Source: a virus | Lineage: Duplodnaviria; Heunggongvirae; Uroviricota; Caudoviricetes | Strand: one strand, 5' to 3' | DNA length: 13,112 nt | Virus record (IMG/VR): IMGVR_UViG_2695420523_000015 | Shown: positions 9,001 to 13,112 of the stretch, one piece after another | Layout of the letters: each line of letters opens with the position of its first letter | Position numbering within the stretch: the stretch's first letter is position 1 | Made by a program: the position numbers

Positions 9001-12000
9001 TTGAGCGTCATATTGACGGTTATTTATAGGTGAGTATCATTCTGGAACAGGCATTTTGGGTAACGTGTTCAGGATATTGCGTAGATACATTTCTGGAACG
9101 ATTCCTTTTCAGCAAGTACATCAGCGCATCACGTGGAAACATATAGGTATATTAAAAATGTATAAAATAAGGCTTCAGAAAAACATAACTATATTATTTA
9201 TTTTTATTGTCATGCTGTCATTTAGTTACTGGCTTGCTAATAGTTTTGGTATGAAGTGGGGCGTACTTGCAATTATTGGTTTTTTCTTGGGTTTTACATT
9301 GTCTTTTAGTCGATTTGGGATAGTTGCAGGTTGGAGAGACATGCTGACCATGAGCAACTCATACTATGTAAGGATTCACTTAATTACCATCGCTCTTGAG
9401 GTGGTTTTGTTTACACTCTGCCTGTCATTCAGCCATGCTTTTTTTGGCGGGAAGATGGTTGGGAATATTACAGCAATAAGTATCCCTTTTCTGGTGGGTG
9501 CGTTTGTTTTTGGTATTGGAATGCAAATTGCCGGAGCATGTGCGTCAGGAACACTCTATTGTTGTGGTGAGGGCCGTCCGGCATTTTGGTTTGTTTTGTG
9601 CTGCTATGGTATAGGGACATTAATTGGCAATCACTATAAGCCAGTGCTAAAACCAATTTTTCCCGGAGAAATTATTACCACCAAAGATATTACTGGCGGC
9701 TTGTGGTCAGGCATGTTATTAAGTCTTGTATTTATATTGATACTATACCTTGTTTTTTCATACATTGAGAAAAAACGCACCGGGAAAATATCTAAAATTA
9801 TCACCAGTGGTGGTTCTTTCTGGAAAGATAACAGATTTACTGTTCTTTCTGGCGGGTTAATTATAGCTGTACTGAACTCACTGGTTCTGGCAATGCACGG
9901 TTCAGCATGGACAATTACCGGAGCCATCTACGATACATCCTTGCATACTGCATCATTTCTTGGGGTTTTATCTGATAATTCTGTTATTACTAAACCATTA
10001 TTTCAGAATCCTATGGTTGGGATGTTCGTAGGTGGATTGCTGGGGGCTGCAATGGCTACTGTACTAACGGGAAAAAGGATCAAAGAGCCTCTGACTCGTG
10101 GAAGCATAATGGCAGGAATAACTGGTGGATTGCTTATGGGAACAGGAGGAGCGTATGCTTCCTGTAATTTGGGAGGATTCTTCGATGGAACTGCATCAGG
10201 AAGTTTACATGGATGGTTGTGGATGTTTATGGCTCTGGCTGGCAGCGTAATTGGGATAAATCTTCGGAGATTTTTTATTTGTTCACGCTGTTAAAAACAA
10301 ATAATTGAATCCTGACAGGAAACTGTGGGAAGAATTCTATTATCAGAAAGTAAAGCCCCCTTGTTTTAAATGTATACAAGGGGGATGCATGCTGAAAAAG
10401 CGTACTATCAAAAAACAGTAACTACGCGACGTAGTACTACCTACTCTAGAAAAATTAGCTGAGCAACCGACTATCTGAAATATACTCACAACCTACGAAA
10501 TTTTCGTATTTTAACCTCCGTCCGGTATATACCCCGAATTACGGGGATGTACGGAGTTACTGTACGGAGTTACCGTTGCCAATAATTATTCGCAAGGTGA
10601 TTGTTGATGCGTGATATTCAGCAGGTTCTGGAACGATGGGGAGCGTGGGCGGCAAATAATCGCGAGAATGTGACCTGGTCATCCGTTGCCGCAGGATTTA
10701 AGGGGATTATTCCGGCAAAGATAACATCACGCCCACAGTGCTGTGACGATGATGCGATGGTGATATGCGGGTGCATAGCCCGCCTTTACCGGAACAATCG
10801 CGATCTGCATGAGTTGCTGGTTGATTACTACGTGCGGGGGATGACGTTTATGTCACTGGCGCAAAAACATGAATGCTCTGATGGGACTATCGGAAAGCGG
10901 CTGCAAAAAGCTGAAGGTGTTATTGAAGGAATGCTGATGATGCTGGATGTTCGGCTGGAGATGGATCGGTATGTTGAGCGCGATTCAGTGACGGCATAAC
11001 GCGCATAAAAAAACCGCACTCATGAGGAAACTGCGGCGGAGAAGTCAGACTTGCCAATCAATCATGAAAAACGTAATCGCCTGATAATTATGCCACGAAG
11101 CACGGAAAAACAGTACAGGCGGTGAGATATAGCCCTCAAATGGAGGGAAAATCCCCTAAAGCGAGGGATATCCATCAAAACGAGAGAACATCCCCTAAAA
11201 TGGGGGATTTGCATCACGGAAAGGTGTCCATGACTGCTCTCCGCGCTATCGGGAGAGGCTTCTCGGCGGTTTTCGCTGAACGCATTCAACGTGATGTTGC
11301 CTCAAATACCCCCTATTGTTGCCTCAAATCGACATGATGTCGCCTCAATTTTTTTTGTGATTATTAATTAAATCAATACGTTAAGGCGTTTGAGGCAACT
11401 GAGGCGACACATTTTTCCTATATATATATAAAGCGTGTGAATGATCTGAATGGTGATAATCACCACGCAGACCATCCAGACAACCATAACGAACATCGTT
11501 ACAGTTGGAGCTTTTACCCCGTTGGGGGGGAAAGGTGCACATCTGGATCATCATTATGGTGATCGAGGGTATGGCTAAAATGACCACACCCCACCAGCTT
11601 CATAGAGGATAACCGGAAAAAATCCGGTAAATATTTGCCTGAGTAAGTCATCAAGCGCCTGCTAAATGTGTATAGAAATGTGTATAGGATTGATTTTAGA
11701 ACATGTAGAAATGGCTTTATTACTGGTGTCATGGCTTGTTGTTCTGTTCCCTTCGCCGCTCCAATTTATCTTCGCCTCATCAATCTGCCATTTTTGCTGT
11801 ATCTGATTTTCTATATTATCTTAATTCAATCGCTTCAGACTTTTCGCAATCGCCGTAATATTTCCCCATTTTGTTGTAAATAAAAAGCGTTTACGCAATG
11901 CAATCCTTTTGTAACAACCCAGGTAAAACACCTTATTTTCAAGTTGTTAAATAAGTGGTTATCTACGCTTTTAACAAACGATTGATGGAATATTTTATGA

Positions 12001-13112
12001 AAGGGAAATCTGCATTAACTCTTCTGCTCGCTGGTATATTTTCGTGCGGCACATGCCAGGCGACAGGGGCAGAAGTGACGAGTGAATCTGTATTTAACAT
12101 TCTTAATTCCACGGGGGCAGCAACAGATAAAAGTTATTTATCGTTAAATCCAGATAAGTACCCTAATTATCGTCTTCTGATTCACTCAGCCAAATTAAAA
12201 AATGAAATAAAGAGCCACTATACCAAAGACGAAATTCAAGGGTTGTTAACATTAACAGAAAACACACGAAAGTTAACGTTGACGGAGAAACCCTGGGGAA
12301 CATTTATTCTTGCTTCTACTTTCGAAGATGACAAAACAGCGGCAGAAACCCACTATGATGCTGTCTGGCTGAGGGATAGTTTATGGGGCTATATGGCATT
12401 AGTATCAGATCAGGGAAATAGTGTAGCCGCAAAAAAGGTTCTGCTCACCCTGTGGGATTATATGTCTACGCCCGACCAGATTAAGCGGATGCAGGACGTC
12501 ATTAGCAACCCCAAACGACTGGATGGAGTTCCCGGGCAAATGAATGCTGTGCATATCCGATTTGACAGCAACTCCCCCGTGATGGCAGATGTGCAGGAAG
12601 AAGGCAAGCCGCAGCTGTGGAACCATAAACAAAATGATGCGTTAGGTCTTTATCTTGATCTCCTTATACAAGCAATCGACACTGGTACAATTAACGCTGA
12701 AGATTGGCAAAAAGGTGACCGATTAAAATCGGTTGCGCTGCTGATTGCTTATCTGGATAAAGCCAATTTCTATGTTATGGAAGATTCCGGAGCATGGGAA
12801 GAAGATGCCCGATTAAACACATCTTCCGTTGCACTGGTGACCTCTGGACTGGAACGTTTGTCGACCTTACTCTCAAAGAAAGACTCTGTTTTTGTCTCTG
12901 ATTTACTACGCGAAGCTAAAGCCAATGAACTGGATGAACCTCTTTCAACAACGAGGTTGAACCACCTCATAGATAAAGGTTATGAAAGAATAACGTTACA
13001 GCTTGATTTAGGGGGAGAATCCCATAAGCGCTAACTTAAGGGTTGTGGTATTACGCCTGATATGATTTAACGTGCCGATGAATTACTCTCACGATAACTG
13101 GTCAGCAATTCT

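Follow-up and report, generated by a model that had tools for sequence, protein, structure and literature searches.

The interval examined here closes the window, by which we mean the whole 13,112-nt stretch of IMG/VR record IMGVR_UViG_2695420523_000015, and it contains, from left to right, a small antiterminator gene of the Q family, about 1 kb of DNA poor in genes, and the beginning of ygeQ, a chromosomal gene for a GH15-family protein with a signal peptide. A sequence-only reading had taken this arrangement for a late cargo layout of the kind found in Shiga toxin (Stx) phages. [quoted passage not shown] The island integrated in glyU, and the closeness of Q to the signal-peptide gene is a product of the insertion and not of operon design. 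The order is a terminal Q, a noncoding right arm, the right attachment site (attR), and the resident ygeQ broken by IS421, and the right arm itself consists of captured lambda-type O-binding iterons, half of an origin of the DUF927 type, a hairpin module, and integrase arm sites. The features are as follows (strand in parentheses where one is assigned).

10493-10509: 17-bp palindrome CTACGAAATTTTCGTAT, lying some 100 bp upstream of Q; a candidate site for a regulator of Q expression
10607-10999 (+): antiterminator gene of the Q21/Q933W family, 130 aa; the last real gene of the island
10981-11098 (+): island-specific block directly 3' of Q; holds the 5' part of a 78-aa His-rich open reading frame (ORF)
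11099-11445: 347-bp insert unique to this island lineage; holds the lambda-type iterons and the partial DUF927-type origin
11132-11207: four lambda-type ori iterons (predicted gpO-binding palindromes), by similarity to lambda, 21, and 434
11286-11436: partial island origin; GTTGCCTCAA/GTCGCCTCA iterons, three in direct and two in inverted orientation, flanking 40 bp of 23% GC and followed by a (TA)n palindrome
11446-11573: conserved four-hairpin module, 128 nt
11664-11687 (+): two tandem copies of AAATGTGTATAG; probable integrase arm-type sites
11741-11766 (+): attR core, in which the tRNA-Gly (glyU) 3' end recurs in degenerate form; right island boundary
11767-11996 (+): native glyU-ygeQ intergenic DNA, 33% GC, including the upstream region of ygeQ itself; contiguous with tRNA-Gly in island-free genomes
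11997-13022 (+): 5' 342 codons of the chromosomal gene ygeQ, disrupted; GH15 family, N-terminal signal peptide
13020-13112 (+): left end of the IS4-family element IS421, inserted in ygeQ

The island boundary at glyU

At attR, the 3' end of tRNA-Gly was matched over 24 to 25 nt in the window and in the sister islands L001 and L002 (relatives are cited by our own labels where they must be told apart), and ARAGORN reported no tRNA in the window. A synthetic empty site, made by joining actS and tRNA-Gly to window positions 11765-12300, was searched in 5426 complete Escherichia coli genomes. The junction was uninterrupted at 99.7% identity in 3379 of these genomes, and the gene found there was annotated as ygeQ or GH15. 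Given that the empty site is contiguous in the 3379 genomes, the signal-peptide gene is a resident that was present before the island, and the position of attR places the island end about 230 bp before it. Boundary repeats and an uninterrupted site were both found, demonstrating a site-specific integrative element at a tRNA gene.

Islands of the same gene order, carrying a different integrase, were also found between yicC and dinD in O157:H7 and O103:H2 genomes. There, Q is again the last real gene, and it is followed by about 1.2 kb of noncoding or small-ORF DNA and then by dinD. Thus, the gene downstream of Q is set by the integration site.

The ORF that begins at 11997 opens with MKGKSALTLLLAGIFSCGTCQA/TG, and its signal peptide was recognized by inspection only. 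The ygeQ product matched PF00723 (E=4.9e-6, above the curated cut-off), and no homologue of the GH15 protein occurred in 50,697 phage records. The full-length protein has 535 aa, and the window copy departs from it from residue 343. The IS421 end is 100% identical to L001 2147-2239, a segment that continues into the coding sequence of the IS421 transposase, and this end accounts for a sequence match in 5372 genomes. Because the stop codon of the ORF (13032-13034) lies inside the IS421 end, the gene is truncated at 342 of 535 codons; the signal-peptide gene of the sequence-only reading is therefore present, but it is not a complete gene. ygeQ is an ordinary E. coli gene outside the island, bordering the ETT2 type III secretion cluster. 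Compared with the usual locus at the glyU edge of ETT2, it is the same gene at 99.7% identity, upstream region included, whereas here it is parted from glyU by the island and truncated by IS421.

The position of attR and the empty site together refute the cargo interpretation. The structure is an ordinary mosaic island end. The apparent layout of Q, control region, and secreted cargo reflects site-specific integration beside a resident gene, and this calls for caution with synteny at island ends.

Iterons and hairpins in the right arm

The stretch of about 1 kb after Q had been described as free of convincing genes, and this was confirmed. The longest ORFs in the gap (11000-11996) reach at most 75 aa, the one gap ORF scanned (11122-11337) had no Pfam match, and RefSeq annotates zero genes in the matching, 99%-identical stretch of strain JNEC-KY203. 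Rfam returned no RNA family at E<=1 in 10600-13112. The four palindromes about 20 bp apart were likewise borne out: they start at 11132, 11152, 11171, and 11191, giving spacings of 20, 19, and 20 bp, and the third is degenerate. The pattern was matched four times versus 0.10 expected, and none of 200 shuffled sequences reached four. Their proposed role as a Q- or repressor-binding region, however, was not upheld. In a blastn search against phage records, the sole matching segment of the gap was 11131-11209, and no phage relatives were found for the remainder. The matched features are annotated as "ori iteron 1/2 (O)" in lambda and as "ori lambda4 iterons for gpO binding" in 21 and 434, and the array is 89% identical to the annotated iterons of these three phages. 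Among the E. coli genomes, similarity to prophage "replication protein" genes was restricted to 11123-11208. By this similarity, the four palindromes are predicted O-protein sites and not operators for Q or a repressor. Plasmid matches to the gap consisted of iterons inside replication genes, the hairpin module in one record bearing chromosome genes, and a 49-bp match at chance level.

In the lambda origin, four gpO iterons and an AT-rich region lie inside gene O. The window array is like it in its dyad sites of 17-19 bp, in their consensus (TCCCTCAAA..GAGGGA), and in the tandem spacing of about 20 bp, but it lies outside an O gene, lacks an equivalent of iteron 4, and has one degenerate site. 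Set against lambda, it comprises iterons 1 and 2, an additional degenerate copy, and iteron 3, and the similarity breaks at the start of iteron 4. The 78 bp directly after the array have 56% GC, the closest AT-rich stretch (23% GC) begins 141 bp off, and an AT-rich unwinding region adjoining the last iteron is absent. No O- or P-like ORF was found in the window. The lambda origin is incomplete, because the iterons come with neither an unwinding region nor an O or P gene.

The insert that carries the array (11099-11445) is missing at the same position in islands of the L002/L047 type. It splits the 78-aa His-rich ORF, which is intact in L002 and L047 (annotated in L047 at 14056-14292) and matched no Pfam family and no PHROG family. 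The block 10981-11098 is about 91% conserved in islands at both attachment sites, and the DNA flanking the iterons is present in only 3 of 5426 genomes. A CCTCAAA core is common to the lambda-type and the DUF927-origin iterons and could have been the microhomology by which the two iteron types were joined. A single donor phage for both Q and the iterons was also considered and was rejected, as lambda-type iterons are lacking from the 12 kb upstream of Q in the Stx1a phage whose Q matches best.

The array is rare and truncated, and its known copies are all identical. Its default reading is a recombination scar; we give roughly even chances to the view that these iterons, which have no unwinding region, are such a scar and not a working origin, and that they serve at most as a decoy for the O protein. 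The alternative that they are functional, so that O and P of a helper replicate the excised island or O titration hinders the helper, is unlikely. It can draw on three near-consensus palindromes and one degenerate copy spaced by two helical turns, on a capture limited to the binding sites without the surrounding O coding sequence, on the 23%-GC stretch about 140 bp away, and on the use of lambdoid helpers by PICIs (PMC6092414). Nevertheless, the array is truncated at lambda iteron 4 and is followed by 78 bp of 56% GC in place of the adjoining AT-rich region of the lambda ori; it occurs in only 3 of 5426 genomes and the window, with all copies identical; the insert breaks a small ORF that is intact elsewhere; and in the Stx phage whose Q is closest, the 12 kb upstream of that gene are free of such iterons.

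The partial origin at 11286-11436 nearly duplicates a portion of the iteron cluster at L001 8901-9063, which lies just 3' of the DUF927 gene in L001 and L002. Sister glyU islands encode a DUF927 protein followed by a 3' origin of many GTTGCCTCA(A/G) repeats in two opposed sets. The iteron cores of the partial origin are kept in L002 and the spacers differ. In the window, no initiator gene matches it, and it does not fit the primase present there. The right-end GTTGCCTCAA cluster is specific to glyU islands.

Folding of the four-hairpin block stood out from that of shuffled sequences on both strands (z = -4.4 on the + strand and -5.4 on the - strand). The module is 90-94% conserved in islands at several attachment sites, with one double change that preserves a palindrome, and islands whose integrases differ carry it close to their right end. 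Of 5426 E. coli genomes, 861 contain parts of it, in up to five places per genome, and no Rfam family and no phage match was found for it. At L053 5001-5090, the module lies at the end of an island with major capsid, decoration, and TerS genes, next to phoQ. The L053 record (NZ_CP031350.1, 187 kb), which is filed as a plasmid, bears phoPQ, purB, hflD, and mnmA and is probably a chromosomal segment or a misassembly. Thus, of the hairpins and repeats pointed out earlier, the 11446-11573 block and the repeats stood, whereas the small hairpins at 10998-11050 and 11215-11290 were no better than shuffled sequences. The tandem AAATGTGTATAG copies are exact in the window and in L002, and similar motifs (GTGTATAG and GCGTATAGGA) adjoin attL and int in L002; because of these like motifs beside attL, the repeats probably serve the integrase as arm sites. 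Both the four-hairpin module, which is widespread, and the orphan lambda-type iterons are minor points of island biology.

The antiterminator gene and its possible target

The product of the Q gene matched PF06530 (Phage_antitermQ) at E=7.6e-52 with 174.7 bits over the full profile (1-118 of 118), the curated cut-off being 26 bits, and it matched PHROG 79, "anti-termination protein Q-like," at 1e-50. By tblastn, its nearest proteins were the Q proteins of Stx-converting phages (phi24B and others of the 933W type), with 82-83% amino acid identity over residues 1-126, and the solved Q21 structures 6jnx and 6p18 matched residues 8-87 at E=2.7e-9. Q21 and Q933W were placed in one family, PF06530, by Yin et al. 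(10.1101/651190). The small protein belongs to the Q21/Q933W antiterminator family, and antitermination activity is predicted for it. Alignment with characterized Q proteins thus supported the sequence-only reading in its call of a Q-like gene, and the coordinates (10607-10999) also stood; the length of 131 aa did not, the product having 130 aa.

Nucleotide identity between island Q and phi24B is 83% and is confined to 10604-10980, with both ends sharp, so that the phage homology stops 19 nt short of the island Q stop codon. phi24B Q runs 18 codons further and overlaps the annotated late promoter and qut, whereas island Q continues with five different codons and then stops. Five island copies of Q, from diverged islands at two attachment sites, are all intact and of equal length, ending in ...ERDSVTA, and dN/dS of island Q is 0.11-0.39. 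Island Q is under purifying selection. When the window was compared with L047, L048, and L003, mosaic genes became apparent: residues 68-105 of L047 Q (the helix-turn-helix region) and residues 19-40 of L048 Q are identical to phi24B Q, and outside these patches both proteins follow the island type. This mosaicism suggests repeated gene conversion with resident Stx prophages. Given the intact copies of equal length, the low dN/dS, and the phi24B-identical patches, the gene seems to be maintained and to keep recombining with Q of Stx phages. The shortened C terminus was also considered as a defect and was rejected, because the tails of prophage Q proteins of other species are likewise short and variable. 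A contig search returned 42 Q-related loci across species, 10 of them with NinG, NinH, or Roi homologues just upstream of Q, as in lambdoid prophages, and none (0/42) with the island genes for primase, SSB, ProQ, PerC, YeeE, or GH15; these loci are uninformative on the island.

Upstream of Q, the CTACGAAATTTTCGTAT palindrome is the one site matching on both strands, versus 0.03 expected, and it is kept in all five of the five island versions aligned. Another repeat, GTACGGAGTTAC, occurs twice in tandem at 10549-10578, a short way upstream of the ribosome-binding site of Q. The window and L048 have two copies of it, L002 has one, and L001 and L047 have none, and because it varies in this way between islands it is probably not essential.

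The stretch downstream of Q was then compared with that of the phages. No copy of the pR'/qut/tR' region of phi24B was found in the window, L001, or L002. Alignment of the post-Q stretch of the window and four sister islands to phi24B yielded short shared words only (TTGCCA, TGCCACG, and ATCATGA), and alignment scores against the phage pR' region were no better than those of shuffled sequence for the window and L047. A copy of the phage pR'/qut after Q was therefore rejected, the shared words being at shuffle level. A consensus scan of 10300-12100 found no sigma-70-like promoter versus 3.7 expected by chance. Between Q and ygeQ, a single weak terminator candidate was found on the + strand, and three candidates on both strands together versus 1.8 expected; no strong intrinsic terminator was detected on the + strand. 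The late cassette of Stx phages such as 933W and phi24B consists of Q, pR'/qut, tR', tRNAs, stx, and lysis genes. The island is like it in having a homologous Q that ends a rightward-transcribed block, but it has no pR'/qut, no sigma-dependent pause element, and no late or cargo genes after Q, and the gene after island Q lies outside the mobile element. Thus, neither the elements of a Q-dependent late cassette (pR', a Q-binding element [QBE], or a pause element) nor downstream genes in the same element were present.

The island family keeps a Stx-phage-type Q as its last gene, under purifying selection and with no target promoter of its own. Since no cis target was found after Q, its function is most economically explained as action in trans at a lambdoid helper's late promoter. 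Island Q would act there as P4 delta acts on P2 late genes. We hold tentatively, at somewhat less than even chances, that Q was acquired from lambdoid phages of the Stx type, still exchanges sequence with them, and, most likely, targets the late promoter of a co-resident helper in trans. Characterized E. coli PICIs exploit lambdoid helpers (PMC6092414). Several points weigh against our account of the island and of Q. The QBE of Q933-type proteins was undefined in the literature searched, and the island may hold a cryptic Q target. Island Q has 5 residues where phi24B Q has its last 18, and C-terminal residues of Q21 touch RNA polymerase (10.1101/651190). The known hijacking modules are missing, with no lambda-like cosN and, among the window proteins scanned, neither a capsid nor a TerS or Rpp family, so that satellite status is assigned by analogy. 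Moreover, the iteron insert is identical in all four known copies, which makes its conservation uninformative on function.

If Q does act on Stx prophages, this would be an unrecognized input into Shiga toxin expression and a new form of manipulation of a helper by a satellite. [quoted passage not shown]

Island Q could instead be a functionless relic, or a dominant-negative copy that blocks late transcription of the helper. The missing cognate promoter in cis and a C-terminal tail unlike that of Stx-phage Q would fit either reading, and satellites typically interfere with their helpers (PMC6092414). A relic, however, is hard to reconcile with an ORF that is intact and of equal length in five diverged islands at two attachment sites with dN/dS of 0.11-0.39, and a loss-of-function truncation with the short, variable tails of prophage Q proteins. 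We regard this explanation as doubtful and less likely than action in trans. Incidental coupling, in which Q-modified polymerase that starts at an unrecognized island site crosses attR and raises expression of ygeQ/ETT2 or dinD, is very unlikely. All island genes and flanking genes are co-oriented, no strong + strand intrinsic terminator was detected between Q and ygeQ, and Q-loaded polymerase ignores terminators (10.1101/651190); nevertheless, no promoter or QBE candidate was found, the flanking gene varies with the attachment site, ygeQ is inactivated by IS421 in this window, and most ETT2 genes in relatives are pseudogenes. That Q, the operator-like region, and the secreted cargo make up a single late transcription unit dependent on Q, as in Stx phages, is scarcely tenable: although Q is 82-83% identical to Stx-phage Q, the GH15 gene lies about 1 kb away on the same strand, and the ETT2 type III secretion genes after ygeQ are likewise on the + strand, attR separates Q from ygeQ, ygeQ abuts tRNA-Gly with the same 230-bp upstream region in the 3379 island-free genomes, dinD follows Q at the other attachment site, neither pR'/qut nor a promoter-like site follows Q, the palindromes match gpO iterons, and GH15 is absent from phage records.

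The island family and its other genes

In relatives, the gene order is actS, tRNA-Gly (glyU), tyrosine integrase, AlpA, Rha/Ant, an Icd-like region, primase, and single-stranded DNA-binding protein (SSB), followed by ProQ/FinO, PerC genes, Q, the gap, the GH15 gene, and the ETT2 type III secretion cluster. The integrase/AlpA end was seen in near-identical relatives, the window itself stopping short of that end, and AlpA in relatives matched PF05930 at E=2.5e-20. Like Gram-negative PICIs (e.g., EcCICFT073) and P4, the island has a tyrosine integrase at a tRNA gene, AlpA, unidirectional rightward genes, a primase-helicase and, after it, an origin in which two iteron sets surround an AT-rich core, and accessory genes toward the 3' end. 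Unlike them, it lacks a lambda-like cosQ/cosN, rpp, capsid, and terS genes, and P4 sid, psu, and delta, and it has an SSB, a ProQ/FinO protein, three PerC genes, and a lambdoid Q. The literature searched yielded no account of a Q gene in PICIs. A lambda-like cos in the right arm was considered and rejected, as the best match (TTTACCGGATTTTTTCCGGTTATCC) scored 27 against the lambda cosQ side with a shuffle maximum of 28, and matches to cosN with <=2 mismatches were at chance level only and lay elsewhere in the window than the right arm. Of the features by which PICIs are recognized (PMC6092414), the integrase/AlpA with rightward genes and the pri-ori were found, and cos and packaging genes were not. 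Because it has no lambda-type cos and no packaging genes among the window proteins scanned, we call the island PICI/P4-like and not a PICI.

Left of about 10595, the window matches the P4-primase/YeeE island type of yicC/dinD and is identical to L048 just upstream of Q; rightwards from 10595, it is 99% identical to the DUF927-type glyU island of JNEC-KY203. By these matches, the window is a recombinant with a breakpoint at about 10595. The whole window arrangement occurred in no complete genome of the collection, the best coverage being 78%. Among O157, O103, O111, and bovine STEC genomes, this AlpA-type island family with its primase is common.

The window primase (3518-5341) has D5_N and Pox_D5 domains and is P4-alpha-like. 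Directly 3' of it, nine TGTTCACC copies in both orientations lie at 5355-5575, versus 0.4 expected in the whole window. We take TGTTCACC to be the type I iteron of the ori/crr of satellite phage P4, and the cluster is the predicted origin of the island itself. Weak Rfam microRNA matches at 5346-5588 are artefacts of inverted repeats. A second iteron site like P4 crr was considered as a general feature and was rejected, because islands with a P4-type primase have no right-end TGTTCACC cluster.

Genes for SSB (5833-6282) and a ProQ/FinO protein (6299-6766) come before two genes for PerC-family (Pch-like) regulators of PF06069, at 6726-7028 (E=2.6e-28) and 7951-8253 (E=4.2e-23), and a third short gene at about 8260-8422 is annotated as PerC in near-identical relatives. 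[quoted passage not shown] The sole sizeable minus-strand ORF of the island (7480-7866, 128 aa) is hypothetical in all relatives and fell into neither a Pfam nor a PHROG family. After the PerC genes and before Q comes a YeeE/YedE-type sulfur transporter gene (9056-10294; PF04143, E=9e-41), which the yicC/dinD island of O103:H2 strain 12009 shares and other sister islands lack, and which looks like true accessory cargo.

Toward the left of the window, two C4 antisense RNA matches at 2028-2115 and 2509-2596 scored 70-73 bits versus a gathering score of 45. An isrK-like match at 1849-1926 scored 50 bits, exactly at threshold, and another at 2405-2483 fell below threshold, as did c4 target-like matches within 1836-2596. 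The region 1836-2596 looks like a duplicated P1-type c4/icd/ant immunity module. A 507-aa ORF at 838-2361 spans the first C4 and isrK matches and was probably over-called; RefSeq calls its relatives "Icd-like."

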